A DNA stretch of 64,000 nt from an uncultured Eubacteriales bacterium (lineage in GTDB: Bacteria; Bacillota; Clostridia; Oscillospirales; Oscillospiraceae). Position numbers and translations under genes: made by a program. Positions 7,848 to 64,000 of the stretch are shown piece by piece. The notes beneath the pieces were generated by a model that saw only the letters and a list, made by a program, of their open reading frames with translations, was not told the origin of the DNA and searched no databases. How positions within the stretch are numbered: position 1 is the stretch's first letter; every line of letters starts with the position of its first letter. The stretch lies in contig URDK01000004.1 in NCBI GenBank assembly GCA_900546485.1, positions 4,589-68,588 on the forward strand, written 5' to 3'.

Positions 7848-7858
7848 GGTGAACACGC

Positions 7859-8905: not shown

Positions 8906-8961
8906 AATGAATCAACCTATAAAAAATTCTCGAAAATCGAGCATAAAAACGACATTTTGTC

Positions 8962-11741: not shown

Positions 11742-11848
11742 TCAGGAGGGCCCGCCGTTGAAGCGGGCTTTCTTAATGAGAATTTAAAGAATTGCCCACT
11801 TTTATCTTAAATCGGCCCCGGGTTACAATAATGGCGTGAGGTGAGGAC

Positions 11849-47840: not shown

Positions 47841-48293
47841 TTGGAAAAAACCGATACACAGGGCACCTGCACCTATAAGCAGGGCAGCCTGCCTGAGTGC
47901 GCGCCGCTCGCGCTTGCTCAGATACCGGCGCAGCAGAGCAGCGAACCGGCATATAAGAGCGGCGAGGCGCTCACGCGCGGCACGCTTTTCCCGGGACTTG
48001 ATCTTCCCTTCAAGAACATCGTCAACCAGATGCCTGCCGAGACCACGGAGCTGCGTGAGCTCATGGCGCTTGACTTCGTTACGGATGAGCTGAACCTGTA
48101 TCTCGATACTCACTCCGAGGATACTCAGGCCTTCGAGACATTTAAAACCTTCCTCAAGCTCTACGACGAGGGCCGCAAGGAGTATGTGTCACGCTTTGGA
48201 CCTCTCAGTCTCTCCGACCTGGCCTCTGCAAAGAGCTATACCTGGCTGAACGACCCCTGGCCCTGGGAATATGTGAGCAGCAAGGAGGGCTGA
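47841..48293 (+). CDS. cotJB: Spore-coat-associated CotJA-CotJB fusion protein
   Basis: The N-terminal part matches CotJA (...EALTRGTLFPGLDLPF) and the C-terminal part matches CotJB (LMALDFVTDELNLYLDTH...NDPWPWEY), in one frame with no stop. TTG start with an AGGAGG RBS. Confidence 0.65.
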   Translation: MEKTDTQGTCTYKQGSLPECAPLALAQIPAQQSSEPAYKSGEALTRGTLFPGLDLPFKNIVNQMPAETTELRELMALDFVTDELNLYLDTHSEDTQAFETFKTFLKLYDEGRKEYVSRFGPLSLSDLASAKSYTWLNDPWPWEYVSSKEG

Positions 48294-48295
48294 AC

Positions 48296-48412
48296 ATGTT
48301 TGTATATGAGAAAAAGCTGCAGTATCCCGTAAAAATCAAGAACACTAACCCCGCCCTTGCCAAGTTCATAATCAGCCAATACGGCGGGCCTTATTGCAGT
48401 ATGCTGCAATAA
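48296..48412 (+). pseudogene. cotJC: Truncated cotJC (Mn-catalase-family spore coat protein). Only the first ~33 codons are present.
   Basis: MFVYEKKLQYPVKIKNTNPALAKFIISQYGGP matches the CotJC N-terminus. The frame then runs into a palindrome and stops. The expected ~150 further codons are absent from the window. Confidence 0.7.
48391..48412. repeat. Perfect 22-bp palindrome TTATTGCAG-TATG-CTGCAATAA at the cotJC truncation point, a candidate recombination (att) site
   Basis: Read directly. A GC-rich hairpin follows it (gccgcgg...ccgcggc, 48416-48446). Confidence 0.6.
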
Positions 48413-48451
48413 TCATGCCGCGGCTCACTAACTGTAAACCGCGGCAAATAA

Positions 48452-48700
48452 TTACTCTGACGTATAAAACCTTGCTCTTCCCTCAAAAAGCTTGTTGAGC
48501 AGCTCGGCTTTGAGCCATGTAGCCAGGCGAAGCTGCTGCTCTGGGCTCAGCTCCTTTGTGTCGGTCAGTTTACCGTTCACGCGAACAAAGGATACAGAGT
48601 TGATCGACAATTGCTTTTTCAAGCAAATCACCACCCAGTATCTATGATATTGTTCGCATATACTGTAAATGACCAGGCAGTCAACTTTTGCAGCCCGCAA
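48452..48700 (-). CDS. Small hypothetical protein overlapping the 3' end of the upstream gene
   Basis: 82-aa ORF with coding-like composition. No recognisable family. Confidence 0.3.
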   Translation of the reverse strand: MRAAKVDCLVIYSICEQYHRYWVVICLKKQLSINSVSFVRVNGKLTDTKELSPEQQLRLATWLKAELLNKLFEGRARFYTSE

Positions 48701-49928
48701 TAAGCCGCTCCATGCGGCAAAGGGTAAGTCGGTTTCTTATGGCAGCTGATATGGACAGCACTTCCCTGCCCATTCCGCCGTCAATGCCCAGTTCTTCAAG
48801 GCTGTGCTTTGCGCCTATGGCTTTGAAAAGCGCCTCAAGCTCAGCAGCTGGCGGTATTTCATCGATGATCTGCCGGATTTCCGGCCATTTATCCCGAATG
48901 TTTTCCGGCGGGAATGTGCCCAGCACATCATTTTTGTTTTCTTCAAGCACACCGTCGGCAAGCTCTCCAAAGATATATCGTACCCAATTATCATCGAGCG
49001 GCTCGAAAGGAAGAATTTCTATACTTTCTTTTTCAGCTAATGCGTGGTACTCCTTCGCACATATCAGTGTACCTACGCCGACGCACTCACCGTGAATACC
49101 TTTGGCATTCTCAAAGCCCCGAGGTTTCATTTCAACAAGGTGTGCAATCAGATGCTCTGCCCCTGAAGCTGCCCGGCTGTGCGAAAGCATCTGCATGGTA
49201 AGGCCGGAAAGCATTTGTGCATATGCCATTGCCTCATAATCCGGCTCACAGCCATCGGCAAGCTCCTTTGCACAGCGTGTCATGAGGTCCAGCGATTCCT
49301 GCGCCATATCGCACACGCGCTCACAGAAGTATTCCCCGGACACGAGATTAGCGATTTTCCAGTCAGCAATGGAGATGTGCTTTGCCAAGATATCCTGCAC
49401 GCCGGCCAGTGTAAGAAAGCGCGGAGCACCGGAGACAACGTTGAGGTCACATACAACGGCATCAGGGGCCTGCATTGGTATTGAGCGCTTCTGGCCGTCA
49501 ATGATTATGGAGCATATATTGGCTGTGAAGCCATCAGCAGAAACGAGCGTTGGTACTGCAACAAAAGGAATTCCCAGTTTGTATGCTGAATACCGACCAA
49601 AATCCATCAGCGTCCCGCTGCCTACAACAACTATGTAGTCCGGAGTTCGTTCAAAGAGCTTCATCATATCTTCGATCATGCCCTTTTCACTGTGGAGGCC
49701 CTCAGCCTTCAGCACGATCTCCTGACCAGCACATATGTGCTTGACAGAGGGTAATGCATAAGTGTTCGTGTCGTATATGACAGTCCTGAAACCGGACAGG
49801 CCGCAGTCCGACATGTAGCTGTCGAAACTATCCATGGCTCCATACTCACAGACGACCAGCTTTGTCCTGAGTTCGTGGACACGACCGCAGGAGCAAGGGC
49901 CTGCGTATTTGGAAGTGTCAAGAATCAT
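48681..49928 (-). CDS. Iron-containing ADH / sn-glycerol-1-phosphate dehydrogenase (AraM/EgsA)-like NAD(P) dehydrogenase
   Basis: VVVGSGTLMDFGRYSA...PFVAVPTLVSADGF nucleotide/metal motifs of the DHQS-like superfamily. Confidence 0.6.
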   Translation of the reverse strand: MILDTSKYAGPCSCGRVHELRTKLVVCEYGAMDSFDSYMSDCGLSGFRTVIYDTNTYALPSVKHICAGQEIVLKAEGLHSEKGMIEDMMKLFERTPDYIVVVGSGTLMDFGRYSAYKLGIPFVAVPTLVSADGFTANICSIIIDGQKRSIPMQAPDAVVCDLNVVSGAPRFLTLAGVQDILAKHISIADWKIANLVSGEYFCERVCDMAQESLDLMTRCAKELADGCEPDYEAMAYAQMLSGLTMQMLSHSRAASGAEHLIAHLVEMKPRGFENAKGIHGECVGVGTLICAKEYHALAEKESIEILPFEPLDDNWVRYIFGELADGVLEENKNDVLGTFPPENIRDKWPEIRQIIDEIPPAAELEALFKAIGAKHSLEELGIDGGMGREVLSISAAIRNRLTLCRMERLIAGCKS

Positions 49929-49957
49929 TTTATGCTCTCCATTCGATGGAGGCGTGG

Positions 49958-50245
49958 TCATACGATGGGGTCTTCGTACCTCTGGGCCACGGCCTTACCT
50001 TCGTAGTATTTTTTGAGCGCCTTAAAATCCACAGCATAGTGCGGATATTCTAAGTGTTTTGCTGCAGCTTCACTGTCGCGGAAGGTTTCAAACAGAGTAA
50101 GCTCACGTTCTTCAGCATTCCAGAAGGCGGTGTATTCCAGACAGCCAGGTTCTTTTCTGGTTGCAAGTATACAGGGCTTTATGTCATTGAGGTACGCCTC
50201 TTCCATGCCTGCAAGTATTTTAAATTTTACAACGATTTTGACCAT
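49958..50245 (-). CDS. ABM-domain (antibiotic biosynthesis monooxygenase-like) protein
   Basis: 95 aa, ferredoxin-like ABM fold (FKALKKYYEG...). Confidence 0.55.
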   Translation of the reverse strand: MVKIVVKFKILAGMEEAYLNDIKPCILATRKEPGCLEYTAFWNAEERELTLFETFRDSEAAAKHLEYPHYAVDFKALKKYYEGKAVAQRYEDPIV

Positions 50246-50262
50246 ATTCCCTCCATCAGACG

Positions 50263-51615
50263 TCAGTCTTTCTCAAGACCGTTTCTGCGTATCACATCGG
50301 CATACCATTTTCCACTGTCTTTCATGATGCGGCGCTGGTCTTTATAATCTACATACACAAGGCCAAAGCGCTTTTTATAGCCCAGCGCCCATTCAAAGTT
50401 GTCAAACGATGACCAAACCATATATCCACGGACATCAGCTCCGTCGGATATAGCCCTGTGCAACGCGGATAGGTGGCTCTCAAGATAACGGATCCGTTTT
50501 TCGTCTCTTACCAGCTCGTTCCGAATTACCTCGTCATCAAAAGCAGCTCCGTTTTCTGTTACTATTATCGGCTTGCCATAGTCTTTCCAGCAACGCATCA
50601 CGGTATCATAAAAGCCGTCAGGACAAATCGGCCAATTCATGGCGGTGTATTGCAGATTTGTGGGTTTTATGGACTTGACCATGAGCGGCCAACGATCATC
50701 GCCGGCGCCTATGAAGTAGCTGTAATAGTAATTCAAGCCGAAGAAATCAGTGGGGGTAGATATAAGCTCCATGTCACCGGGCGCTATGTCCGGAAGAACT
50801 ACACCGTGATTTTTGTACCAGTCCTGCATATCCGACGGATAGCATCCCTTGTATACGGCATCCAGAAACCAGCGATTCCAGCATCCATCCCAGCGCCTGC
50901 AGGCTTTAACGTCCTCGGGATCTGCCGATATGGCATAATGATGCGGCAAATAGTTGGTTATTCCTATCTGGCCGGATGAACCAGAGGCGCGGAAGGCTCT
51001 GACCATCTTGCCGTGAGCCAACAGTAGATTGTGAGCAGACAGCAAGGCGGATGAGAAATCGTGGATACCTGGCGCATGCTTTCCATCCCAAAAACCGTGA
51101 TAGGAAATGATTTGAGGCTCGAGGATAGTTCCCCAATACGGTACTTCTTTCGGAAACGCCGCAAACACACGCTCGGCTAGTTCAGCCAGCCGGTCAGAGG
51201 TATCGCGGTTGAGCCATCCGCCCCTCTCCTGCAGCTTCTGAGGCAGGTCCCAGTGATAGAGCATTATGAACGGGGCCACACCGTTTTCCAGCATTGAATC
51301 GACAACGCGCCTGTAAAAATCCAGACCCTTTTGATTGAATTTGCCGTCACCGTCGGGAATTATCCTGGGCCATGAAATGGAGATACGTTGGGTATGAAGC
51401 CCCAACTCCCCCATTATCTTGGCATCCTCAGCATACCGGTGGTAGAAATCGCAGGCTACATCACCGGTATCTCCATTTTCAATGTTCCCCGGAGTGCGGC
51501 AGAATCTGTCCCATATGCTCTCGCCTTTTCCGTCCTCGTTCCAAGCTCCCTCCGACTGGTACGACGACGCAGATGCTCCCCACATAAAGTTTTCTGGAAA
51601 TATCAGTTTCGCCAT
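50263..51615 (-). CDS. GH1 beta-glucosidase / 6-phospho-beta-glucosidase
   Basis: FMWGASASSYQSEG, the catalytic TENG acid/base (IIVTENGAA) and nucleophile regions. 450 aa. Confidence 0.85.
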   Translation of the reverse strand: MAKLIFPENFMWGASASSYQSEGAWNEDGKGESIWDRFCRTPGNIENGDTGDVACDFYHRYAEDAKIMGELGLHTQRISISWPRIIPDGDGKFNQKGLDFYRRVVDSMLENGVAPFIMLYHWDLPQKLQERGGWLNRDTSDRLAELAERVFAAFPKEVPYWGTILEPQIISYHGFWDGKHAPGIHDFSSALLSAHNLLLAHGKMVRAFRASGSSGQIGITNYLPHHYAISADPEDVKACRRWDGCWNRWFLDAVYKGCYPSDMQDWYKNHGVVLPDIAPGDMELISTPTDFFGLNYYYSYFIGAGDDRWPLMVKSIKPTNLQYTAMNWPICPDGFYDTVMRCWKDYGKPIIVTENGAAFDDEVIRNELVRDEKRIRYLESHLSALHRAISDGADVRGYMVWSSFDNFEWALGYKKRFGLVYVDYKDQRRIMKDSGKWYADVIRRNGLEKD

Positions 51616-51631
51616 GCACGCCTCTCCTTCT

Positions 51632-52690
51632 TCAAAGGCTTATAGCGGTGCCAAGCCTGTCAGAATCGTATATAGCATTCAGCATACGCTGGACAGTCAG
51701 GCCGTCCTCTGCAGGTGAAATAGGTCTTTTACCCTCGAGAATGCAGTTTACAAAGTGAGCAGTTTCTCTTTCAAATGCGGGCTGCCAGCTGTCTTCCGGG
51801 ACGAGCACCGGCACAGTATCCGTGAGAAAGCCGTCTTCCTCCCCATACAGCTCCAGCGGGCGGAAACAAGCTCCGCCCTTGGTCCCGTAAATCTTGGAAA
51901 ACATTTTTTCCTCGCGACCGTTTATTGCCCAGCTTATGTCCACGCTCATCGAAGCACCGTTTTCAAAGCGAATAAGTGCAGATGCCGCTTCCTCATTGTC
52001 GAACACGCCATTCTTGGCGCCGGCCGCGGCCCAACCCTTTACGCTTCTTGTTTCATAGCTTCCTATATGTCTGTGCGTGACACCCGTAACCAAAACCGGC
52101 TTTGGGCGGCCCATTAGGTACCAAGTTAGGTCAATGACGTGAACCCCAATGTCAAGAACTGCGCCGCCTCCAGACTTGGACTTATCCGTGAACCATCCGC
52201 TCGGTGTGCCTCGGCGTCTTATCCAACCGCAGCGCGCATGATAAATATCGCCGAAACGTCCAGCTTCTCTCAGTTCGGAGAGCATAATGCTTTCCTGCCT
52301 GAAGCGGTTTACAAAGGCCATCATAAACGTTACGCCGTTCTCGTCGGCGGCTCGCTTCATGTTTTCGGCCTCCTGGACACTAATGGCCATAGGCTTTTCG
52401 CAAAGTATGTGTTTACCTGCCTTAGCTGCGGCCACTGCAAGGCTTTCGTGCGACACATTGCCTGTACATATGCTTATGCAGTCAATGTCAGCATCGCTGA
52501 GCACATCCTCGTATTTATCATACGCCTTAGGTATACCGAACCTGGTGCACAGGGCCTGAGCACGATCCAGGTGCCTGTCGAACACAGCGGCCACCTGAGC
52601 GTTTTCGCATTTCAGGAAGGCCGGAATCTGATTGTCTCTGGCCACTGTTCCAGCCCCGATTATGGCAACTCTTACCTTATTTTCTGTCAT
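51632..52690 (-). CDS. Gfo/Idh/MocA-family NAD(P)-dependent oxidoreductase (1 of 3)
   Basis: VRVAIIGAGTVA Rossmann fold and EKP motif. Confidence 0.8.
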   Translation of the reverse strand: MTENKVRVAIIGAGTVARDNQIPAFLKCENAQVAAVFDRHLDRAQALCTRFGIPKAYDKYEDVLSDADIDCISICTGNVSHESLAVAAAKAGKHILCEKPMAISVQEAENMKRAADENGVTFMMAFVNRFRQESIMLSELREAGRFGDIYHARCGWIRRRGTPSGWFTDKSKSGGGAVLDIGVHVIDLTWYLMGRPKPVLVTGVTHRHIGSYETRSVKGWAAAGAKNGVFDNEEAASALIRFENGASMSVDISWAINGREEKMFSKIYGTKGGACFRPLELYGEEDGFLTDTVPVLVPEDSWQPAFERETAHFVNCILEGKRPISPAEDGLTVQRMLNAIYDSDRLGTAISL

Positions 52691-52701
52691 TAGTGCCTCC
52701 A

Positions 52702-53727
52702 TCAGAGCACTTCGCTCATTTCAACTGGCCTGTCCTCTGCAATGGACTTGAGCGCGGCAAAGCTTACCGCGAGGCTGTTTAGATTATCAAATACAGTAGG
52801 AACGCAGCCTTCCTCACCAGACAGCTGACCTTTTATATCATGAAGCACACCGGCTCTGTCCTTCCCGGGGAAGGCAAAATCTTCGCACAGAGCGCCGTCA
52901 ACGCCTACGGACATGTCGAGGCGGTTCGGCTCGTCATTCTCCCACTTGACAGCGCCTTTGTCGGTCTGAAGTATCCAGTCACACTGATATCCGGTCGGGA
53001 AACCTATGGATTTCTCGGCAACGGAGTAGCTTGCCTTGAAGCCGTTTTCAAACTCTATAAGTGCAAAAGCGGCGCCCAGACCGTTTATATCACTCCACTC
53101 CGGATTCCAGCCTCTTGCGTATATGGATTTGACATTGGAACCGCTTATAAAGCGGAGCATATCAAAGTGATGAATAGCGACCTCCAGCATGAGGAGGCTG
53201 GTCTGCTCACGGCGCCAGTCCTTTCTCTGCCACGCAGTCTTTTCGCTGTTCTTTTCATTGGATATACCATGACGGAAAACAACATTAGCCCACGCCGGCT
53301 CGCCAATGCCGGTTTCTCCAAACGAGGCCTTCATCTGCCACAACTGGGGGCGGAAACGATAGTTTTGGCTTACCCACGCCCTTTCAGAACGTCCCTCCAT
53401 AAAGCCGCAGAACTCTTTTGCCTCCTCCAGATTGTCGCAGAGAGGCTTTTCAATAAGAACGTTCTTCCCCGCCAGGACGGCCTTTTTTGCATATTCCACA
53501 TGGAATTTGTGAGGAAGCGCAACAATGACCAGATCAGCTTCACATTTTAGCGCCTCATCATAGTCTGTGTAGCAAATCTCGTCCCGGATACCCCACTTTT
53601 CTTTTGCAGCTGCGAGACTTGCTCCACCTCGGCTGACAAGGGCAACAAGCTCACAGTCGGGCTCGTTGTGTATGTATTCCAGCCAACCTGCGGCCCAGCC
53701 GCTGCTTCCAACCTGAATTACTTTCAT
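52702..53727 (-). CDS. Gfo/Idh/MocA-family oxidoreductase (2 of 3)
   Basis: MKVIQVGSSGWAAGW and EKPL motifs. Confidence 0.75.
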   Translation of the reverse strand: MKVIQVGSSGWAAGWLEYIHNEPDCELVALVSRGGASLAAAKEKWGIRDEICYTDYDEALKCEADLVIVALPHKFHVEYAKKAVLAGKNVLIEKPLCDNLEEAKEFCGFMEGRSERAWVSQNYRFRPQLWQMKASFGETGIGEPAWANVVFRHGISNEKNSEKTAWQRKDWRREQTSLLMLEVAIHHFDMLRFISGSNVKSIYARGWNPEWSDINGLGAAFALIEFENGFKASYSVAEKSIGFPTGYQCDWILQTDKGAVKWENDEPNRLDMSVGVDGALCEDFAFPGKDRAGVLHDIKGQLSGEEGCVPTVFDNLNSLAVSFAALKSIAEDRPVEMSEVL

Positions 53728-53750
53728 ATGACTCTCCTTAACGCAGTTGC

Positions 53751-54866
53751 TCAATCCTCAAGCTGATCTAGGCCAATCGGAGTAAAGCTTGTCTTGAGCT
53801 CGATAGTCTTGCCTGTACGCATAGACTCAAAGCCCGCCTCAATTATTTCAATGACGTGGCAGGCCTGTTCCGCGGTGCCAAGCGGTGCCTTGTCTTCGCG
53901 TACATAGTCGATTAGCTCCATGACATCCCGGTAAACGAAGGGCTCGTGCATTTTGAGGTGTACCGGAGGAATGCTCTTTGCGGCCATGCCCATTATGGGA
54001 TTTTCAAAGAGTTGCTGGTCGTTGAATTTTCCCTTTTCTATTTTACCTTCAGTACCGTAGATTGAAGGAGACATCATATTCTCTCCGCCGGCAAGTGCTG
54101 AATAAAACATGCCGTAAACGTTGTCGCCGAAGTCGAGGAGAAAAGCAAAGTTATCTTCAACTTCACTTTCTATTATCTGCTCACCAAACTTGAACTCCTT
54201 CATAATCTGGCCGCCCATGCAAGACACGCGCTTTACAGGGCCAAGTATGCCGGTCATAGAAGTGAGACCATATACTGCGTGGTCGTACTGAGGTCCGCCG
54301 TCTGGCTTCTTGTAATACCAGGTGGGGACGAGCGGCTCCGAGCCATAGTTTTCCTGACGGTATCCTTCGCGGAGATGATACAGCAGAACTCCACGAACGC
54401 CACCGATGGCATAAGTCAGTCTGCCGAGCTTGTTTTCGAGAACCATGCGCCTGGAAATGCGGTTGATGGGCATGGCCATCATACCGGGCGAGGCCGTGAT
54501 CTTAACATTCATGCGCTTGGCTTCTTCTATAAGTTCGGCTGCCTCGGCGCTGGTCATGGACATGGTTTTGTTAAAGTGTACATGCTTTCCTGCGCGGATC
54601 GCCTTCATGCCCTGCTCATAGTGAAATCTGATGGGTGAGCAGATAGAAACCGCGTCGACATTGGGGTCGGCGAGCAGCTCGTCGTCGGTCATATACCAAT
54701 TCTTTATCCCGTACTGCTTTGCCATGGCCTCAGCTCGTCCGGGAACGGGGTCGCATACAGCGGCAAGATAGACCTTATCCGTGGAGTCCCCAAGTTCAAG
54801 GTGCTTGAATATAGAATTTATTGCTATTTCGCCCGAGCCTATGGCTCCAAGTCCCAACGGTTTCAC
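53751..54866 (-). CDS. Gfo/Idh/MocA-family oxidoreductase (3 of 3)
   Basis: GLGAIGSGEIA...AVCDP...HVHFNKTMSMT. Confidence 0.75.
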   Translation of the reverse strand: MKPLGLGAIGSGEIAINSIFKHLELGDSTDKVYLAAVCDPVPGRAEAMAKQYGIKNWYMTDDELLADPNVDAVSICSPIRFHYEQGMKAIRAGKHVHFNKTMSMTSAEAAELIEEAKRMNVKITASPGMMAMPINRISRRMVLENKLGRLTYAIGGVRGVLLYHLREGYRQENYGSEPLVPTWYYKKPDGGPQYDHAVYGLTSMTGILGPVKRVSCMGGQIMKEFKFGEQIIESEVEDNFAFLLDFGDNVYGMFYSALAGGENMMSPSIYGTEGKIEKGKFNDQQLFENPIMGMAAKSIPPVHLKMHEPFVYRDVMELIDYVREDKAPLGTAEQACHVIEIIEAGFESMRTGKTIELKTSFTPIGLDQLED

Positions 54867-54892
54867 AACTGCATCCTCCTATCTTTCTCTTG

Positions 54893-55888
54893 TCAAAAGC
54901 CCTCTACAATTTCCAGCATTTTGGCCACATACTGCCGTGAAATCTTCCTGTTGTATTCCACGCGGTCATCACGTTCCGCGTCATTGGTAGGCAGCTTGAA
55001 CGCCGGTTCCGCCAGCAGCGGCATTCCATGAGGAGTCGGAGCTTTCTCGATGATCGTTCTTAGTATACGTTCAAAATCGATGTATCCATCGCCCAGATAG
55101 CACCCAGTAGTCACCATTGGCATGTCCGGGTACAACTTGGTTCGCAGCGGATTGTCAACGACGGCAAAGTCCTTGAAATGAGCCGCAACAGCATATGGAG
55201 CTAGATACTCCAGATCCTCCATGGGGTCACAGCAAGCGACAGCACCGTTTCCAAAGTCATAAAGAGCCCGTATATTTTTAGAGCCAATGTCTTCGATTAT
55301 TGAGGCAATTTCTCGCCCATTGAAGTCACAGTGGTTTTCGTAAGCAAATACGAGTCCTGTTCCCTCAAGCATTTCCGCCATTATCTTTAGGTTTGCTGTT
55401 ATGAACTTTCTCTGCTCAGAAAATGGAAACGCCTTATTATAACGGCTGGTTGCCACATTGTTGTGACCGTAGCCTCCACACAAAAAACGGCTGTTAAGTG
55501 CAAGGGCCATTTTTATAGTCCTTTCCACACCTTTCGCAGCCACGGAGCTGTCCGGTGCGTCATCCGGCGCTGAAACTCCCATTGCAGCTCCCGCAGCTCC
55601 CCAGGAATCAACTCGCAGAGGGAGCCCGGCGAGGCCCCATACTGTGAACGGATATAGAAGCAGCTCAACATCGCGTTCTCTGGCTATTCCGGCCATCTCG
55701 CTTAATGTATCCGAGCTCAGCTCCTTTGGTATCATGTGCGGGAACAGTGAAACGGCGCGCGCTCCAAGTCTGGAGCATTCCTCCAGAGTCCATATATATG
55801 ACTCCATGCCGGCAGGAGTGCCGGCAGGAGGCATTAGGTTAAATGGTTGAAAACCGACTCTGAAATCATATGTATTTCCCATCGGCAC
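54893..55888 (-). CDS. Sugar phosphate isomerase/epimerase (xylose-isomerase-like TIM barrel)
   Basis: 331 aa TIM-barrel protein with the metal-ligand pattern typical of IolE/DgpB-like enzymes. Confidence 0.65.
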   Translation of the reverse strand: MPMGNTYDFRVGFQPFNLMPPAGTPAGMESYIWTLEECSRLGARAVSLFPHMIPKELSSDTLSEMAGIARERDVELLLYPFTVWGLAGLPLRVDSWGAAGAAMGVSAPDDAPDSSVAAKGVERTIKMALALNSRFLCGGYGHNNVATSRYNKAFPFSEQRKFITANLKIMAEMLEGTGLVFAYENHCDFNGREIASIIEDIGSKNIRALYDFGNGAVACCDPMEDLEYLAPYAVAAHFKDFAVVDNPLRTKLYPDMPMVTTGCYLGDGYIDFERILRTIIEKAPTPHGMPLLAEPAFKLPTNDAERDDRVEYNRKISRQYVAKMLEIVEGF

Positions 55889-55903
55889 ACCCCTTACCCT
55901 ATA

Positions 55904-56611
55904 TTACTTAAGGCCAAGGACTATCGGCGTGGATTTGAATCCGATACCCATTCTGTCAATGCCCATATCAATGAGCTTAAGGAATTTTTCTCTGTCGCGT
56001 ATTCCGCCGGCTCCCTTGATCTTGCAGCGGCCGTCGGCTGCCTCCATCATGGCCTCGATGACCTCGTAGGTGGCACCCTCATTCTTGCCGCCGGTAAAGA
56101 AGCCGGTGGAGGTTTTTACGAAGTCCGCGCCGGCCGCTATAGCAACTTCAGTGGCCTTCTTGACTTCATCAATAGTGAGCGCATCTACCTCGAAGATGAC
56201 CTTCACATTGGTGCCGTACTTGTGGCAGACATCGCAAACCGCCTTTATATCAGCCTGTACGTCATCCCACTTTCCGCTGCGAATCCAACCATAGTTGGCG
56301 ACAATGTCCAGATCCTCAATGTCGCCATCACGGCAAATGATTTCAGCCTGCATGACCTTTGATTCTGTGCTGGAAAGTCCAAAGGGGAAGTCACAGACCA
56401 CGCATATTCCGGTGTCGGTGCCCTTGGTCAGCTCTCTGGCAATTGGAAGCGACGCAGGATTGATGCACACCGTGGCGCAATGATAATCGATACCCTCCTG
56501 GATGTACTTCCTGATGTCGTCCTGAGTAAACTCAGGCTTGAGCACGGACTGGTCTATATACCTTCCGAGCTCTTCAACACTCATCTCACAGGCTTTTTTA
56601 GTAGGTTTCAT
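55904..56611 (-). CDS. DeoC/LacD-family class I aldolase (deoxyribose-phosphate aldolase-like)
   Basis: Schiff-base lysine context ADFVKTSTGF. The start could instead be 56647. Confidence 0.7.
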   Translation of the reverse strand: MKPTKKACEMSVEELGRYIDQSVLKPEFTQDDIRKYIQEGIDYHCATVCINPASLPIARELTKGTDTGICVVCDFPFGLSSTESKVMQAEIICRDGDIEDLDIVANYGWIRSGKWDDVQADIKAVCDVCHKYGTNVKVIFEVDALTIDEVKKATEVAIAAGADFVKTSTGFFTGGKNEGATYEVIEAMMEAADGRCKIKGAGGIRDREKFLKLIDMGIDRMGIGFKSTPIVLGLK

Positions 56612-56676
56612 ACTGAATCTCGGCGCTTTGCGCCTGGCTCCTTTCACAAAAGAAATATCGGTTAAGTTAAAGATGA

Positions 56677-57657
56677 TTATTTGTTGCCCTTTTTGCTCCT
56701 AACAACGTCGATATAAACCGCGATGAGGAGCAGCGCACCTTTGACAAGAGACTGAGCGTAGGTGTTCATGCTAAGGAGGTTCATGCCGTTGGCAAGTACG
56801 GAGAAGAACAGCATGCCGAGCAGAGTGCCGACAATGTTGCCTTTGCCGCCTGCGACGGAGAGACCACCTATGATGACGGCTGCGATAGCGTCCATATCAG
56901 CGCCGGAGCCCTGGTTCGGAACGGCGACATAGCCCTGAGCTATGTAGAGAATGGTTGCCAGACCGGCGCAGCCGCCGGAGATCATAAAGGCTACTGCCCT
57001 GGTCTTCTTAACATTGATACCGGACAGATACGCCGCTTCTTCGCTGCCGCCAACAGAAATAACGTTCCGTCCGAAGCGCGTATATTTCAATACAATACCT
57101 ATGACCACATAGACTATCGCCGCAATCACTATCATAGTGGGTATGCCAAGAATGTCGCCACGGCCTATCCATTTGATGAAGTCGTCGCTTATCTGGATCA
57201 TGTTGCCGTCCGAAACTATGTACGCAAGCGCGCGGAACACAAGCTGCGTGCCCAGCGTAGTGATGATTGGCGAGATGTGCATGTAGTTCATTACGAGGCC
57301 GTTGCAGATACCGCAGGCCACGCCAACGGCGACAGCGACCAGCAGGAGCACGGGCCCGGATACGCCGGCGTTGTAAGCCACACCGACGACCATGCCGCTG
57401 AAAGCCATTATTGACATCTGTGACAGGTCAAGTCCACCAAGCAGCATGGATACCGTCACGCCGGCCGCGATGATGCCGGATGCGGACATGTATACGCCAA
57501 TATTTTTTATGTTCGACGCCGACAGGAAGTAGGGCGACGCAAAAGACCAAACAATTGACAGAGCAATTACTGCTATCAGCACGCTGCCATATGAGTTGAA
57601 TGCGTTCTTGCCCGCTCCCTTAAGACGGGCGCCGAATCCATTTCCGGTGTTTTCCAT
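56677..57657 (-). CDS. Ribose-type (RbsC-like) ABC transporter permease
   Basis: 10-TM profile, family-2 monosaccharide permease. Confidence 0.8.
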   Translation of the reverse strand: MENTGNGFGARLKGAGKNAFNSYGSVLIAVIALSIVWSFASPYFLSASNIKNIGVYMSASGIIAAGVTVSMLLGGLDLSQMSIMAFSGMVVGVAYNAGVSGPVLLLVAVAVGVACGICNGLVMNYMHISPIITTLGTQLVFRALAYIVSDGNMIQISDDFIKWIGRGDILGIPTMIVIAAIVYVVIGIVLKYTRFGRNVISVGGSEEAAYLSGINVKKTRAVAFMISGGCAGLATILYIAQGYVAVPNQGSGADMDAIAAVIIGGLSVAGGKGNIVGTLLGMLFFSVLANGMNLLSMNTYAQSLVKGALLLIAVYIDVVRSKKGNK

Positions 57658-57660
57658 CTG

Positions 57661-59145
57661 TTACTCTCCTATTGCGCTCTTTACTATATTCACCTGGGTA
57701 ATCTCATCGCCCTCATATTCAGCGACCAGTTTGCCCTCGTGCACAACATATACTCTGTCAGCTATGCCGAGCAGCTCCGGCAGCTCCGCTGCCACATACA
57801 GCACCCCGCACCCAGCCTTGCACAGCGCTTCGATGTCCTTGTAGATCTCAACTTTTGCGCCTACGTCAATGCCTTTTGTCGGATCATTGAGCATAAATAC
57901 CTTGGGCCTTGTGGCAACCCATTTCGAGATGACAATCTTCTGCTGGTTTCCGCCGGAAAGCGAGGATGCCGGAGTATAGGGCGAAGGGGTTTTTATCCGG
58001 TAGTTACTTATCCATTTCAGCGCTGTTTCCCTTTCGCGCTTCAGGTCAATAAACAGGCCTCTTACAAAGTCCTTAAGAGTCACAATGGTCAGGTTGCTGA
58101 GCACCGAGTGACCGAGCATCAGACCTTCGCGTTTTCTCTCCGCGGGAACATAGGCCAGTCCGGCCTTTTTGGCGTCCATTGGCTGGTGGATTTCTGTTTT
58201 CTGTCCCTGTACGTAGAACTCACCTTTACGGTATTTACGGACGCCGAACGCACACTGGATTATCTCCGAGCAACCAGAGCCCATAAGTCCGTACAATCCA
58301 ACAATCTCATGGCGGCGAACGTTCAGAGAAATATCGTGCAGGAAACCGTCATCCAGACCTTTGATCTCAAACACGACGTCGCCGAGCTCACGTTTGGACA
58401 CTGGATACATATCCTTCAACTCGCGCCCACACATGCTGTTGATTATGGCATCTTTAGTTGTGTCCTTTATTCCACCTTCGTAGACACTTTCGCCATTTCG
58501 CAGGACCTGTACGCGGTCAGCTATGGCAAACACCTCATCAAGCTTGTGTGAGATATAGATGATACCCTTGCCCTCGGACTTTAGCTTGCGGATTATATCC
58601 ATGAGCTTGTCCGTTTCTTCCTGGTTAAGAGCGGATGTGGGCTCATCCATTATGATAACTTTAAGTTCCTTGGAGTAGGCTCTGCCTATCTCAACAAGCT
58701 GCTGCTCTGCGGTAGACAGCTGACCCAACAAGGTGGAGGGGCGAAGATGCCCCAATCCAACCTGTTCCTGAATGTTCATGCTGTCGGCGTACAGCTTCTT
58801 GTAATCTATCAATCCACCGTGAGTTGGCTGAGAACCGAGAAATATATTTTCGGCAATTGAAAGCCCTTTAACATTGGTCAACTCTTGGTATATTGCCGTT
58901 ATACCCAGAGCCAGAGCCCTTGAGGGAATCATTTTGCCTTCATCTTTTTCTTCAAAAAGTATCTGGCCCTCGTCCTGCTGATAAGCACCGGACATTATCT
59001 TGATAAGCGTGGACTTACCTGCCCCGTTCTCTCCAACTACGGCAAGAACTTCGCCACTGTTCACTTTCAAGCTGACGTTGTTCAGTGCTATAACACCAGG
59101 GAACCGCTTGGTAATTCCCTTCATTTCAAGCAGGGTATTGCTCAA
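57661..59145 (-). CDS. Sugar ABC transporter ATP-binding protein with duplicated ATPase domains (RbsA-like)
   Basis: Two Walker A motifs (GENGAGKST and a degenerate second one) plus LSGGNQQK. Confidence 0.85.
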   Translation of the reverse strand: MSNTLLEMKGITKRFPGVIALNNVSLKVNSGEVLAVVGENGAGKSTLIKIMSGAYQQDEGQILFEEKDEGKMIPSRALALGITAIYQELTNVKGLSIAENIFLGSQPTHGGLIDYKKLYADSMNIQEQVGLGHLRPSTLLGQLSTAEQQLVEIGRAYSKELKVIIMDEPTSALNQEETDKLMDIIRKLKSEGKGIIYISHKLDEVFAIADRVQVLRNGESVYEGGIKDTTKDAIINSMCGRELKDMYPVSKRELGDVVFEIKGLDDGFLHDISLNVRRHEIVGLYGLMGSGCSEIIQCAFGVRKYRKGEFYVQGQKTEIHQPMDAKKAGLAYVPAERKREGLMLGHSVLSNLTIVTLKDFVRGLFIDLKRERETALKWISNYRIKTPSPYTPASSLSGGNQQKIVISKWVATRPKVFMLNDPTKGIDVGAKVEIYKDIEALCKAGCGVLYVAAELPELLGIADRVYVVHEGKLVAEYEGDEITQVNIVKSAIGE

Positions 59146-59207
59146 TTTTGCAACACCTCCAAATTCGCTGTTACCTGCATGGAAAAGTTGGTACTCCTTA
59201 TACCTTG

Positions 59208-60236
59208 TTATTCGGCGGGGTAGTAATCATACACGTTGGCAGCGGTAACCATAACGCCGCTGTGCTCCGTGAAGGCTTCAGGGTTTTCACCGTTCATGAT
59301 GGCGTTAACCTTATCAAGCAGCTTGTAGCCGTAAGTGGAAGTCTGAAGGTCAATAGAGCCGTACCAAGTGCTGTACTCACCGGAGTCTGCATACTGCTTG
59401 ATGTGATTGAGGAAGGTCTCAGTGCAGTCGCAGGAGAGCAGCATGACGTTCTCAGAAGCTCCAGCGTCAGCGACAGCATTGACTATTACAGGGGCAAAGG
59501 TGTCGGTGCAAGTGATGTAAAGAATGTTCTTAGCGTCGGGATGAGAGGTAAGGACACTGGCGGTATTGGCTCCGATGGTGCTGGTGTCAAGGCCGGTGTC
59601 AATCTTGACCCACTCAACGTCTGCAAGATACTCATATCCGGGAGTAGCCATAAGCGTTTCAACAGCCTTGTCGGTGCGAGAGGCCATTGCGGGGACAGCA
59701 TTGTAAGCGTTGGCAGTGATGATAAGATCAATCTTGCCGCCCCACTCCTCGGTAACGGCCTCAGCTGCAAAGTTTCCAAAGAACTCACCGAGACCGTCAT
59801 TAGAAGTGCCGTAGCTGTATGCACCCTCAACCGGGCAATTAAAGGCAACCGCCATAAAGGGCATGCCGGATTCAACAGCTTCCTCAGCATACGCATTGGC
59901 CACTTCTTCAATGGAATAGCCGTCAACGATGATATCTACGTCCTGAGCTATGAGAGAATCATAGGCGGAGCGCATACCGGCGCTATCCTTAGCAATCTGA
60001 TAGACCATTTCAACGCCCTGCTCCTCACAAGCAGCAGTAAAGCTCTCAAGGACCTCTTTCCAGAAGCCGTCGGAAGGATCGGAAGTTATGTATCCAATTT
60101 TGTAGCTCGAGGTGTTCTCGCCGTCAGTTGCGGGGGCGTCGCTTGCCTGTGCATCTGCGGGCTCTGAACCACAGCCGGACAATACTAGGCAAAAGAGCAT
60201 AACGATAGCCAGCAGCATAGACAGTTTCTTTTTCAT
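59208..60236 (-). CDS. Sugar ABC transporter substrate-binding lipoprotein (RbsB-like, PBP type I)
   Basis: Lipobox LSGCGS. 342 aa. Confidence 0.8.
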   Translation of the reverse strand: MKKKLSMLLAIVMLFCLVLSGCGSEPADAQASDAPATDGENTSSYKIGYITSDPSDGFWKEVLESFTAACEEQGVEMVYQIAKDSAGMRSAYDSLIAQDVDIIVDGYSIEEVANAYAEEAVESGMPFMAVAFNCPVEGAYSYGTSNDGLGEFFGNFAAEAVTEEWGGKIDLIITANAYNAVPAMASRTDKAVETLMATPGYEYLADVEWVKIDTGLDTSTIGANTASVLTSHPDAKNILYITCTDTFAPVIVNAVADAGASENVMLLSCDCTETFLNHIKQYADSGEYSTWYGSIDLQTSTYGYKLLDKVNAIMNGENPEAFTEHSGVMVTAANVYDYYPAE

Positions 60237-60510
60237 TTGTTTCTCCTCCTGTTTAAATTAATTCTTCTACTCATTTAAATTTAATGAGCTTATGCGACAC
60301 ATTAATAGCTTTCACAATTTTGCAATTTGCATCAATATCGATTACTTACTGATGACATGATAACCGAGAATTTTGCAATTATCAACATTATTTTGCGTTT
60401 TCTTGCGCTTACTTTGCAATTTTGTGACTTTAAACAGATTTAGGTTCAAATTTTCTCCCTAAAGAAACAGATAACTGTTAATTATTGTTATTTCAAAGTG
60501 AAGATTAATT

Positions 60511-60544
60511 AAAAAAGCAGGCCGTGAACAAGCACGGCCTGCTT
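60511..60544 (-). terminator. Rho-independent terminator after the DeoR gene
   Basis: agcaggccgtg-aacaagc-acggcctgct preceded on the plus strand by an A6 tract. Confidence 0.7.
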
Positions 60545-60565
60545 TCAGATAAGCTGTATACAAAT

Positions 60566-61324
60566 TTATACTACGTCAAAATTGTCAGGGACATTGACCA
60601 ACTTCGGGCACTTATCACAAATTACCCGTTCAAAATTGTTTAGCGTATCCAACTTACAGAAACTACGGCGATTTAACTTTCCGGAGTCTAAAAGAAGGTA
60701 ACAATGATCTCCATTTTGCCTGGCCAAATTTTTAATGGCAAGCGTATCAAGTTCATTTGTGTATGCCAAGCCCTCATTAAGATCGGCACAAGTACAACTA
60801 ATAAATACCCGATCGAAGTGAAACTGTTCCAACATCTGCTGAGTAAGAGTACCCACGCTCATGGCATAATGCGTGAGGTATGTGCCCCCTATCAGAACAA
60901 TGTCAGCTACAGGATTGTTCATCGATCGAACAAACAGCTCACTGTGTGTGACAATCTTCACATTACGCTTTTCCAGGAACTTTGCCAGCGCGGCAGCGCT
61001 GGTACCGCCGTCAACAAATATACATTCTCCATCTTGAATATACTCATTGGCTTTTTGGGCCACGCGGAGTTTTCCCTCAAAATTGAGAGACTTTTTGGCG
61101 CGCATGGTCAGCTCTGCGTCATTACTGGATTCGTCGGCTTTTTCGTTCAACTTGGCCCCGCCGGTAACTCTTTTGAGCTTGCCTTCATTTTCAAGCTTTT
61201 CAAAATCTCTTCTGACTGTTGCCTCGGAGATGCCAAGTTCTTTTGCGACGTCCTTTAGGTTAATTATACCTTTCTCATTGAGTTGAGAAATAATATATCT
61301 TGTTCTTTCTGAAGCAAGCACCAT
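60566..61324 (-). CDS. DeoR/GlpR-family transcriptional regulator
   Basis: N-terminal HTH (INLKDVAKELGISEATVRRD) and a C-terminal sugar-phosphate-sensor domain. Confidence 0.85.
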   Translation of the reverse strand: MVLASERTRYIISQLNEKGIINLKDVAKELGISEATVRRDFEKLENEGKLKRVTGGAKLNEKADESSNDAELTMRAKKSLNFEGKLRVAQKANEYIQDGECIFVDGGTSAAALAKFLEKRNVKIVTHSELFVRSMNNPVADIVLIGGTYLTHYAMSVGTLTQQMLEQFHFDRVFISCTCADLNEGLAYTNELDTLAIKNLARQNGDHCYLLLDSGKLNRRSFCKLDTLNNFERVICDKCPKLVNVPDNFDVV

Positions 61325-61400
61325 GTGCTCCCCCTCACATTTTGAGTACTTCTATAATTTAGATACTACTACGTATTTTGCCAAATGTCCACAGAAAATG

Positions 61401-62249
61401 TCAAGTTTTAATTGGATTAAGCGCAAAATACTCATAAAACAGCTTCAGCAGAGCGGGCTTGTTGCAGTCCCACTCAATGTTGAAGCGCGAAGCAGGTACA
61501 ACGACCATCCAACCGCCGCAAGCGGCACGAAGATCATCCACACTCATGTCGCAGAGCTTGGCGTACTCGCTCTCATAAGCTCTAACAAAACGCTTAATAC
61601 TGCCGCGAGCGCTTTGCATTCTTTCCGCACGCTCGGGATCGACCTTCCCCGGCTCGATATTTCCTCCGAAGTCAAACATTTGGATTGTGCGCGCAACGTC
61701 AGCAAATGGATCTCCCGCGCTGGCATCACTCCAGTCAATGGTGAAAATACCGCGTTCATTATAAATCAGATTGCCAGGATGATAGTCGTTGTGGCAGAGA
61801 CTGTTTCCGTCCGGAAGTTTTTCAAGAAGACGCAGCATCCTGTTGGTGAGATCTGAGCCAAGGTTGTATTCTGAAAGCCGCAGCAGCCGCTCATACCTCA
61901 CTTTGCTGTCCTCAAGTCCATCCACTGGACAGCTATGCATATCAAAGTGAACCTTTGCAAATCCCACAGCCAGCTCTTCAGGAGAAGCTTCACCTGTAAC
62001 GAGAAGCTTCATCATGCTCTCTCCTTTTATGTATTCCTGGAGCATGGCACGTTTACCTTCATGGTTGTTCAGATATCCCCTGTATTCAGGCACAAGAATA
62101 CCACAGCTCTGAACGGTCTGGGTGCAGAGGATTTCTCTTTCTATATCTGCCTGAGGTACATAGTCTCTGTATATCTTGATGATGTTATCGGCGCCATATA
62201 ACTCTACATCAGCCGTGAACCCTGTTGTGTTGCGCTCATTATTTTCCAT
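61401..62249 (-). CDS. APH-fold small-molecule phosphotransferase (aminoglycoside/sugar-kinase family)
   Basis: Brenner motif CHNDYHPGNLI and IDWSDASAGDP. The second ATG was chosen as the start. Confidence 0.65.
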   Translation of the reverse strand: MENNERNTTGFTADVELYGADNIIKIYRDYVPQADIEREILCTQTVQSCGILVPEYRGYLNNHEGKRAMLQEYIKGESMMKLLVTGEASPEELAVGFAKVHFDMHSCPVDGLEDSKVRYERLLRLSEYNLGSDLTNRMLRLLEKLPDGNSLCHNDYHPGNLIYNERGIFTIDWSDASAGDPFADVARTIQMFDFGGNIEPGKVDPERAERMQSARGSIKRFVRAYESEYAKLCDMSVDDLRAACGGWMVVVPASRFNIEWDCNKPALLKLFYEYFALNPIKT

Positions 62250-62267
62250 GTGCACATCCCTTTCAGT

Positions 62268-62290
62268 ATATTGCAACATTCTGCAAATAT
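62268..62290. repeat. Near-palindromic motif ATATTGCAACATTCTGCAAATAT next to the recombinase gene, related to the cotJC palindrome
   Basis: Read directly. It shares TATTGCA...CTGCAA(A)TA with the 48391-48412 site. Confidence 0.4.
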
Positions 62291-64000
62291 TCTATATCAA
62301 TTTTGAAAATCCGTCAAGTATTTGCACGTGAGCAAACTAATTTTGCTGACGAAAATTGAATACAATTAAGTAAGACTATTGTTGGGGGGATGAGCTTGCA
62401 AAAACGTATGGCCGCTGCGTACATAAGAGTATCGACTGAGGAGCAGGCCGAACTTTCACCTGAAAGCCAAATAGAAGAAATACGACGTTATGCGGAGCGC
62501 GAAAACATTGAACTTCTTGATGAGTATATCTATATAGACTCAGGGATATCTGGGAAAAAAGCCGGCAATCGGCCGGAATTTATGCGCATGATATCAGTTG
62601 CCAAGAGCGCTGGCTGTCCATTTTCAGTGATACTATTATGGAAGTATTCGCGATTTGCGCGCAATCAAGAAGAGAGTGTGTTCTACAAATCTATACTTCG
62701 TTCAAGATGCAGCATAGATGTCATAAGTGTTACTGAACCGCTCATAGACGGTCCTTTTGGAAGCCTGATTGAGCGGATAATTGAATGGATGGATGAGTTC
62801 TACTCAATTCGCCTTAGTCAGGAAGTTAAACGCAGCATGAAGGTTAATGCTGAGCGCGGCAAGCTTCAATGCCCGGCCGCATATGGGTATAAAGCCATTA
62901 ATGGAGAACTGATTCCAAATGAACTTGAGGCTGAATTTGTGAGGCTAATTTTCAGCAGGTTTAACTCTGGAAAGGGCACATATAACATCGCACGGGAACT
63001 TAATGCTGCCGGGGCAAGGACGCATAGAGGAAATCGATTTGAAAGCCGTACTGTTGAGTACATATTGAGAAACCCGGTTTATATCGGCCGCCTTCGCTGG
63101 AATCCATACGGACATACGGGTAGAGATTTTTCAAAGCCGGGCTTAATAATCTCAGAATCCGGTCATGAGCCTATCATAAGCATAGCAGACTTTGATGCGG
63201 CTCAAGTGCGGTTAAATAGTAAAGATTCATCAGGCCCTCACTCTTTGAGTCAAAAAGGTGAATTAAAGAGTTGGGCATCAGGACTAATACGATGCGCAAG
63301 CTGTGGAGCTAGGCTGGTATTCTCCAAGCCCGACTATTTCAGATGCAGCAATTACATAAGGGGTCGTTGTCCAAGCTCTCAGCATATCAGAGCCAATCTA
63401 TTGGAAGGAGCGCTTTTATCTCTGCTTATGTCCGATTCCAGCGGCTCGGCTCCCCTGCTGTTCAATCTGGTTGAGCGCAAGGAACATATGGGAGAAGAAC
63501 AGTCCCTGCTTGAGGCCTCCCTGCGAGCTGCAACCTCAAGGCGACGGCGTCTGCGCGACATATACCTGGAAGGAGAAATAGAAATTGAAGAGTTTTCCCG
63601 GCTTAATCGTCAGTTTGATACCGAGATTAAACAGACGCTTGCTAAGATGAATGCACTTCGTTCACAAAAAAGAGAGCCTGATTGGCAGAATTACCTGCAG
63701 AAGTTGGCTTTATCCACTCAATTAAGCTTTGAGCCAGACTTGTATGACATTAAGACACTTAATCAAGCCGTTCAAGCGGTTATTGAGGAATGTGTTTTTG
63801 ACAAAAAGGATATGACTTTGGTGATTATGTATCGTCTTGACTTATAGCCTACAATTGCAACCTTATGCCATAAGGCGGACCGGATGGTGAGCTGGGAGCA
63901 TCTATTCGGTATTTGAGCCAGAGGTATGCTATGCCCAGCCCCGAGCTCAAGGGGCTTCTGACGGATATCGGTACCGAGGAACTGGGACACCTCGAGATGA
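62280..64000 (+). mobile_element. Left end of an integrated or intervening element (low-GC, serine-recombinase-bearing) that continues beyond the window
   Basis: Marked drop in GC by eye from about 61.9 kb onward. A recombinase gene lies at the boundary. Confidence 0.5.
62390..63847 (+). CDS. Large serine recombinase (resolvase/invertase N-domain, recombinase domain and zinc ribbon)
   Basis: YIRVSTEEQ catalytic serine region and a C-terminal CASCGARL...C ribbon. 485 aa. Confidence 0.85.
   Translation: MSLQKRMAAAYIRVSTEEQAELSPESQIEEIRRYAERENIELLDEYIYIDSGISGKKAGNRPEFMRMISVAKSAGCPFSVILLWKYSRFARNQEESVFYKSILRSRCSIDVISVTEPLIDGPFGSLIERIIEWMDEFYSIRLSQEVKRSMKVNAERGKLQCPAAYGYKAINGELIPNELEAEFVRLIFSRFNSGKGTYNIARELNAAGARTHRGNRFESRTVEYILRNPVYIGRLRWNPYGHTGRDFSKPGLIISESGHEPIISIADFDAAQVRLNSKDSSGPHSLSQKGELKSWASGLIRCASCGARLVFSKPDYFRCSNYIRGRCPSSQHIRANLLEGALLSLLMSDSSGSAPLLFNLVERKEHMGEEQSLLEASLRAATSRRRRLRDIYLEGEIEIEEFSRLNRQFDTEIKQTLAKMNALRSQKREPDWQNYLQKLALSTQLSFEPDLYDIKTLNQAVQAVIEECVFDKKDMTLVIMYRLDL

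Follow-up and report, generated by a model that had tools for sequence, protein, structure and literature searches.

A serine-recombinase element splits the spore coat gene cotJC of a human-gut Oscillospiraceae bacterium and is probably excised at sporulation

How does a bacterium that probably forms spores, given that its SpoIVA is intact, come to carry a cotJC reading frame that departs from the CotJC sequence after only some 32 codons? The question arises in a stretch of 64,000 nucleotides (the window), which includes both SpoIVA and the cotJ locus. Mother-cell expression of the cotJ operon under sigma-E is established for B. subtilis only and is carried over here by assumption. The first gene of the locus is a fusion of cotJA and cotJB (47841..48293, + strand; TTG start, AGGAGG 9 nt upstream), and Pfam places CotJA (PF11007) at residues 22-57 and CotJB (PF12652) at residues 71-143 of its 150-aa product. 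A first-pass annotation, made from the sequence alone, had correctly recognised both proteins in this single ORF, but had listed the fusion as an anomaly. Of its 5068 homologues, the best 120 almost all have both domains in a protein of 144-155 aa; these best matches come from Oscillospiraceae and Clostridiales genomes, and the fused gene also lies upstream of intact cotJC in contigs L104-L111. Going by these homologues, the fused gene is the normal form in the clade.

A called ORF of 38 aa (48296-48412, + strand) starts 2 bases after cotJAB, reads into element DNA and stops at 48412. It begins as a canonical CotJC, as the first-pass annotation had held: its first 32-33 residues align with the Mn_catalase profile at positions 1-33, and residues 1-32 are 100% identical to the intact CotJC of a sister species, which together delimit native codons 1-32 (48296..48391, + strand). 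The same annotation had stated that the Mn-catalase core was absent from the window, and here it was mistaken. When the intact sister CotJC was used as a tblastn query against the window, residues 1-32 matched at 48296-48391 and residues 30-71 at 63874-63999, both on the + strand. The second match, 93% identical to the intact orthologue, belongs to a 3' part of cotJC that runs from codon 30 onward (63874..64000, + strand); 42 codons are visible before the frame runs off the window end, and it continues to codon 198. The missing part, for which a search had been advised, is thus found 15.5 kb downstream on the same strand, with a recombinase gene before it. The two halves are co-oriented and broken at codons Gly30-Gly31-Pro32. 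cotJC is split by an integrated element of ~15.5 kb, and is neither truncated nor decayed.

In contigs of sister species that share the upstream gene order, cotJAB is directly followed by an intact cotJC of 198 aa; the CotJAB of two of them is 88% (L011) and 80% (L014) identical to that of the window. The joined 198-aa protein is 86-94% identical to proteins with PF05067 and, by this similarity, is a full-length member of the CotJC/Mn-catalase family (PF05067), with predicted catalase activity.

The element is bounded at both ends by the sequence GGCGG(G/A)CC, the two copies of which lie 15,491 bp apart. By direct reading, the left copy, GGCGGGCC (48383..48390), forms the core of attL, which reads ...CAATAC GGCGGGCC TTATTGCAGTATGCTGCAATAA..., and the right copy, GGCGGACC (63874..63881), forms the core of attR, which reads ...CCTTATGCCATAA GGCGGACC GGATGGTGAG...; the A/G position of the attR core varies among strains, and the variation is synonymous. 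We infer that crossover occurs at the GG at 48386-48387. When the element ends are joined, the reconstructed attP is an imperfect dyad of ~50 bp, in which 19 of 29 positions are mirrored around the central GG and the inner arms, ATAAGGC-GG-GCCTTAT, are perfect. When the gene ends are joined, the resulting attB is CGGC-GG-ACCG, and the 8-bp core is common to attP and attB. A dyad attP, with a short stretch of identity to attB around a central dinucleotide, is the usual design of serine integrases.

The first-pass annotation had placed the break exactly at a perfect 22-bp palindrome and had interpreted it as an insertion or attachment junction rather than as random decay. Both the position and the interpretation are borne out: divergence sets in at codon 33, where an inverted repeat (48391..48412) begins, the ORF stops inside this repeat, and the junction at 48391 is the attL site of a serine-recombinase element. 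The repeat falls short of a perfect palindrome, as it consists of 9-bp arms around a non-palindromic 4-nt spacer (TTATTGCAG-TATG-CTGCAATAA). All of it belongs to the P' half-site of attL, which stems from the element, and it spans +4 to +25 from the presumed crossover; divergence from cotJC therefore begins exactly there. In itself the repeat is unremarkable, and its location is what counts: the window holds about 11 distinct loci with perfect arms of at least 9 bp and loops of up to 10 nt, and related elements have the same half-site layout without the internal hairpin, which is thus not a feature of the family. At the other end of the element, the element-derived P half-site of attR (CCTACAATTGCAACCTTATGCCATAA, 63845..63873) mirrors the P' half-site at attL. 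Just past the 38-aa ORF lies a G+C-rich, terminator-like stem-loop with a weak T tail (48416..48446, - strand); a sigma-70/terminator scan of the junction did not report the 48391-48412 repeat itself as terminator-like.

The gene adjoining the 3' half of cotJC encodes a large serine recombinase of 483 aa (62396..63847, + strand); it has the same orientation as cotJC, and its stop lies 26 nt before attR. The protein contains Resolvase (PF00239), Recombinase (PF07508) and Zn_ribbon_recom (PF13408) domains, belongs to PHROG 95 (integrase), and carries the motif YIRVSTEEQ at residues 9-17. The frame is open from 62390, but a 485-aa start was rejected, as an exact look-up of this form matched nothing; the TTG six bases downstream, at 62396, gives the 483-aa form, which is present exactly on 14 contigs. 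The frame is open in 11 of 11 copies, with a pN/pS of 0.30. The nearest solved relatives of the recombinase are the integrases of TP901-1, A118 and SPbeta (SprA), with the SprA similarity found by sequence search covering only recombinase residues 152-307, and it reaches no NCBIfam equivalog model. A search of cultured-phage genomes found no close relative; the best match, with 47% identity over 69% of the query, was to a metagenomic virus.

Beside the 5' half of cotJC lies a conserved ORF of 56 aa on the - strand (48452..48622; TTG start at 48622), which gene callers lengthen to 82 aa, out to 48700. Some 45 representative relatives, 52-103 aa long, share its start point, and polymorphism amounts to 3 synonymous and 1 non-synonymous changes in the 56 codons, compared with 1:4 in the upstream 26 codons. 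Because the homologues begin at 48622 and the upstream 26 codons evolve as non-coding sequence, we adopt the 56-aa start. The conserved core of ~50 residues reads IKtvSYVhVGdkLVnTdDLtpEQ..LAtWLK.TYLN.LF.GkA.F; the protein has no match in Pfam, PHROGs or NCBIfam, and its AF2 model (pLDDT 94), a beta-hairpin and a helix, has no PDB match in Foldseek. This small ORF is the only gene besides the recombinase that is common to related elements, occurring with it in 23 genome and 25 viral loci (48), always on the opposite strand. Its co-occurrence with the recombinase makes the 56-aa protein a candidate recombination directionality factor. It has no homology or fold match to known directionality factors, which themselves have no common fold (PMC12286644).

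The small ORF and all cargo genes are on the - strand, between the 5' half of cotJC and the recombinase. The cargo is a carbohydrate-catabolism island of ~13 kb (48681..62279, - strand), annotated with Pfam and NCBIfam. Its enzymes comprise a glycerol-1-P-dehydrogenase-like Fe-ADH, an ABM protein, a GH1 glycosidase, three Gfo/Idh/MocA oxidoreductases, a xylose-isomerase-like TIM barrel and a DeoC/LacD aldolase, and they are accompanied by the permease, ATPase and binding protein of a sugar ABC transporter, a DeoR regulator and an APH-like kinase. The GC content of the element interval is 0.41-0.53, compared with 0.55-0.61 in the flank. By Pfam annotation, all cargo genes belong to metabolism, transport or regulation, and none is a phage structural, packaging or lysis gene; nor do the element genes include any relaxase, mobilisation or conjugation Pfam family. 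We considered two established classes and rejected both: prophage, as phage genes are absent from the element, and Tn4451/TnpX-type mobilisable transposon or ICE, as the mobilisation and conjugation families are absent.

Does the split gene still matter to its host? In 10 of 10 strain contigs (L015-L024), the 3' part of cotJC is an open frame of 169 codons with a normal stop. Compared with intact orthologues, the joined gene has 93-95% amino-acid and 83% nucleotide identity, and the dN/dS of the 3' part is 0.02-0.04. Among element-bearing strains, the 3' half has 17 synonymous segregating sites and 1 non-synonymous site (V/I); of the changes private to the element-bearing subclade, 12 are synonymous and 1 is non-synonymous (binomial P = 2e-7 against neutrality). 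Five of the 18 segregating sites also occur in element-free strains, so recombination with intact alleles could add to the selection signal. Some of the synonymous changes fall in codons 34-38, which precede the first in-frame Met (codon 49), and this stretch is thus translatable only once the halves are joined. The split cotJC is still under strong purifying selection. The first-pass annotation had named two outcomes that would refute it, a short cotJC-like ORF in related genomes with no downstream fragment anywhere, and a decayed paralogue of an intact cotJC elsewhere in the genome. Both fail: related genomes have an intact cotJC at this same locus, and element-bearing strains keep an intact 3' fragment under selection. 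Across the 10 element-bearing strains, diversity is 0.91% for the element and 0.96% for the flank, and 13.3 kb of element sequence are free of indels. As the element is as diverse as its flank, it is a long-term resident and not the product of a recent sweep; it has been in place throughout the time in which the host subclade built up its diversity.

We think it likely that the 15,491 bp inserted in cotJC are a skin-like serine-recombinase element, excised at sporulation with the 56-aa protein as directionality factor. The element entered through recombination between its attP and the attB of cotJC, catalysed by the large serine recombinase. During sporulation, the recombinase, with the 56-aa protein as its directionality factor, would excise it from the chromosome of the terminally differentiated mother cell. 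This would allow transcription of intact cotJC along with cotJAB when the coat is assembled, and the forespore would keep the element together with its sugar-use operon. The element may descend from a temperate-phage family that uses the cotJC site, having lost its phage genes and carrying metabolic cargo. We infer both the sporulation-timed excision in the mother cell and the directionality-factor role by analogy with skin/sigK, SPbeta/spsM and gin/gerE, in which a serine recombinase acts with a small directionality factor (PMC4191935, PMC5025042, PMC5499854, PMC5595907). Promoter sequences lend weak support to sporulation control. Regular-expression scans found almost no strict sigma-E/K promoter matches upstream of the small ORFs; the recombinase is preceded by a loose sigma-E/K-like AATACAAT element with CTAATTT before it, and a shared looser motif, [CA]ATAGGAC-N13-RWATRGNT, was spotted by eye upstream of the small ORF in relatives.

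The main rival to sporulation-timed excision is an ordinary integrative mobile element, such as a degenerate prophage or mobilisable island, that inactivates cotJC and excises sporadically for transfer with no link to sporulation, cotJC being dispensable or covered by a paralogue. In B. subtilis, cotJC is not essential for sporulation, and plain disruption might therefore be tolerated for some time. The species occurs both with and without the insertion, as would be expected of such an element (in the contig collection, the intact CotJC protein is indexed in 61 blocks and the exact 38-aa stub in 50), but an element whose diversity equals that of its flanks is no recent arrival. Cover by a paralogue is conceivable, given that C. 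difficile has several CotJC-like paralogues (PMC11222575), yet the 3' half is under strong purifying selection, with its 12:1 ratio of private synonymous to non-synonymous changes, and many species retain full-length 3' halves beside such recombinases, even in compact elements of 4-7 kb. Relatives of the element are found in real tailed phages, whereas phage, conjugation and mobilisation genes are all absent from the element itself. The looseness of the upstream sigma-E/K-like motifs also suits an ordinary mobile element, while the placement of the recombinase beside the 3' fragment fits skin elements (bioRxiv 10.1101/2022.02.25.481979). On balance, the selection data and the absent transfer genes disfavour this rival, and we regard it as rather unlikely.

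Contigs in which cotJC is uninterrupted bear on the remaining alternatives. A protein identical to the joined CotJC has been recorded (P0241, 41 contigs), and most of the intact-cotJC contigs displayed belong to a sister subclade that is 3-5% diverged and has other genes downstream. In one empty-site contig, L111 (Logan ERR11473724), the genes downstream of cotJC are those of the element-bearing subclade; compared with the window strain, it shows no difference in 1584 nt upstream and a single one in 7450 nt downstream. Its junction, ...CAATACGGCGG-ACCGGATGG..., combines the left side of attL with the right side of attR; its attB is the predicted excision product to the base, and precise excision restores the 198-codon cotJC frame. 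The element thus leaves, or enters, precisely, although the empty site does not tell when. An exact-pattern search for the attP junction of the excised circle found none in JGI metagenome contigs or IMG/VR and is uninformative, the species being known from ENA and Logan human-gut data.

A deletion or ancient pseudogenisation, in which the 3' five-sixths of cotJC were lost at a rearrangement breakpoint, the sugar operon is native and the hairpin is the terminator of that operon, is highly improbable. The gap from the small ORF to the stub does contain terminator-like stem-loops on the - strand, and the genes downstream of cotJC do vary between sister species, but a serine recombinase and duplicated core sequences bound the interval, and the scenario is refuted by the missing part, which lies intact and co-oriented 15.5 kb away, and by the isogenic empty site. 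The chance that two unrelated contigs were joined at a short repeat is negligible: the window does match a metagenome contig (ENA ERZ27251922 k141_31007, base for base over the 33 kb compared), but both junctions are seen again, with variation between strains, in tens of independent assemblies that different studies produced with different assemblers (the stub context is identical in 10 of 10 contigs displayed, which are independent and from different studies, and the right-hand junction likewise recurs across contigs), and the split arrangement is not an assembly artefact.

Among known systems, skin/sigK (B. subtilis SpoIVCA/Skr; Clostridioides difficile CD1231/CD1234) likewise consists of a serine-recombinase element that splits a mother-cell sporulation gene into co-oriented halves, with the recombinase gene (spoIVCA) at the element edge beside the 3' fragment and with excision restoring the frame; skin has a small directionality factor, and one would be expected here too. 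In contrast to skin, the target here is a coat gene and not a sigma factor, so that excision would not gate a regulatory cascade; moreover, the two recombinases are only distant relatives, and a sugar-catabolism operon takes the place of prophage remnants as cargo. The gin/gerE element of Bacillus cereus (GirC/GirX; PMC5595907) is, like ours, a non-prophage gene-intervening element that lacks phage genes, uses a serine recombinase and a partner of ~6.5 kDa, and has a short shared core in the middle of a dyad attachment site. It differs in its target gene and bacterial class (ours being Clostridia, Oscillospiraceae), in having three recombinases where there is one here, and in the 13-kb metabolic island found here; the 56-aa ORF, which lies outside Pfam, PHROGs and NCBIfam families, is set beside GirX by description only. 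SPbeta/spsM of B. subtilis (SprA/SprB; PMC4191935, PMC5499854) offers a third parallel, in that active phages and degenerate derivatives use one attB in a sporulation gene, and the integrase and small partner ORF flank attP when free and take opposite ends once integrated, although SPbeta spans 134 kb and the window element 15.5 kb, with no phage genes.

Skin-like elements are well known, and two earlier works already name cotJC as a target: Abe et al. (2013 Mol Microbiol 90:415), cited to this effect in bioRxiv 10.1101/2021.11.22.469490, and Galperin et al. (bioRxiv 10.1101/2022.02.25.481979), for an element that interrupts cotJC in Laceyella sacchari. These earlier cases share with ours the target gene and the skin-like idea; they are brief bioinformatic mentions in Bacilli. 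Our literature search found no experimental study of a cotJC element, and no account of the recombinase and its partner as a family, of the attachment sites, of how widely they occur in gut Clostridia or of a metabolic island as cargo. The case turns an apparent pseudogene into a testable instance of programmed DNA rearrangement in uncultured human-gut Oscillospiraceae, whose sporulation biology is barely studied, and it serves as a warning that annotation pipelines label such split coat genes truncated or absent. It also suggests that insertion into a sporulation gene may be a safe harbour for metabolic islands, beyond prophages. For genome engineering, a serine integrase with defined attB, attP, attL and attR, a candidate directionality factor and dozens of natural variants is raw material.

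The natural variants emerged from a scan of 185,579 species genomes with the recombinase, which yielded 79 loci of 36-58% identity across Oscillospiraceae, Lachnospiraceae, Eubacteriales and Christensenellales. The source species itself was not among the loci recovered; its neighbours point to Oscillospiraceae, Candidatus Scatomorpha. In about 50 of the 79, a cotJC fragment broken at residues ~28-33 abuts the recombinase gene, in one of two layouts: after the recombinase comes either the 3' half or, on the opposite strand, the 5' half. On contigs that contain both halves (L035, L037, L039, L040, L041, L046), these lie 3.9-8.4 kb apart, and many 3' halves in relatives reach residue 197-198 without stops. 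A further 78 related loci are in IMG/VR. Several viral contigs of ~40 kb encode tail fibres as well as the small ORF, and in them an intact dyad attP immediately follows the stop codon of the recombinase; their attP cores mimic cotJC (GAGTACGGCGGACCAGAC in L115, GTATGGCCCACCATAC in L120). In L115 and L117-L119, attP lies between the recombinase gene and the small ORF; integration therefore leaves one of the two at each end of the element, as in the window.

We tentatively propose, as a possibility somewhat short of probable, that in gut Clostridia the conserved QYGGP codons of cotJC serve as a general landing pad, used by a large and uncharacterised family of serine integrases with 55-65-aa partners, that this family spans active tailed phages, minimal elements of 4-7 kb and metabolic islands, and that programmed mother-cell excision makes integration cost-free. 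If so, whole catabolic operons, such as the 13-kb glycoside/inositol-like pathway here, would be carried in the germ line inside a sporulation gene. In some genomes, two or three different recombinase elements are stacked in cotJC, at residues ~30, ~64 and ~136.

Across the genomes that carry relatives of the window recombinase, cotJC looks like a multi-site hotspot for interruption. Interruptions occur at additional positions in the gene: it is broken after approximately CotJC residue 64 in five of these loci (L027, L031, L033, L037, and L081), where a different serine-recombinase gene, encoding a protein 25-28% identical to the window recombinase, lies near the break. In four loci (L037, L040, L072, and L103), cotJC is broken after approximately residue 136, and in L037, which has both breaks, cotJC is split into three or more fragments. 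In L039, the module of recombinase and small ORF (the candidate recombination directionality factor) is duplicated in tandem (7145-8944 and 11378-13177) within a single cotJC insertion. In C. difficile R20291, the phi027 prophage adjoins a CotJC-like gene, CDR20291_1465 (PMC11222575), and it may be another phage whose attachment site lies in a cotJC-family gene.

Within the host species, two subclades differ by a block 3' of cotJC, which consists of a 209-aa ORF, a 4Fe-4S protein, a CitMHS transporter, and a CoA-transferase. One subclade comprises the contigs L104-L110, with intact cotJC, and the other comprises the element-bearing strains (L015-L024) together with the near-identical strain whose site is empty (L111). 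In this set of contigs, the element within cotJC is confined to the latter, block-bearing subclade.

The cargo of the window element (48681-62279) is a complete-looking carbohydrate pathway that resembles glycoside 3-oxidation or inositol-type catabolism: it includes DeoR, a kinase, an ABC transporter, an aldolase, a TIM-barrel isomerase/dehydratase, three Gfo/Idh/MocA dehydrogenases, GH1, ABM, and a glycerol-1-P-dehydrogenase-like enzyme. The kinase and DeoR of two loci from other genomes, L025 and L026, share 78-88% identity with their window counterparts, whereas the recombinase shares only 58%. Thus, the cargo and the integration module have separate histories.

Despite this divergence of the recombinases, an invariant 17-bp block, TCCGTCAAGTATTTGCA, is kept in all three elements (alignment A2, aligned columns 52-68). 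In the window it lies at 62311-62327, in the divergent region separating the kinase gene from the recombinase gene, and it may be an operator. Two other conserved sequences may be promoters recognised by a sigma factor of sporulation. The first, a bipartite motif, [CA]ATAGGAC-N13-RWATRGNT, is found upstream of the small ORF, 15-25 nt 5' of the ribosome-binding site, in L029, L031, L034, L035, L037, L040, L043, and L044; the second, GAATA(C/G)(A/G)AT, precedes the recombinase gene and is conserved among the window, L025, and L026.

Elsewhere in the window, SpoIVA (15976-17454, + strand) is intact with all three domains present, which supports a sporulating lifestyle of the host. A sigma-70-family factor with two sigma-70 domains is also encoded, at 9008-9631, as is an Amidase_3 protein, at 25010-25741. 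A 338-aa tyrosine recombinase (38894-39910, + strand), whose synteny is conserved in L011, L014, and L104, contigs from sister species with intact cotJC, is probably a housekeeping Xer-type enzyme rather than a component of a mobile element.
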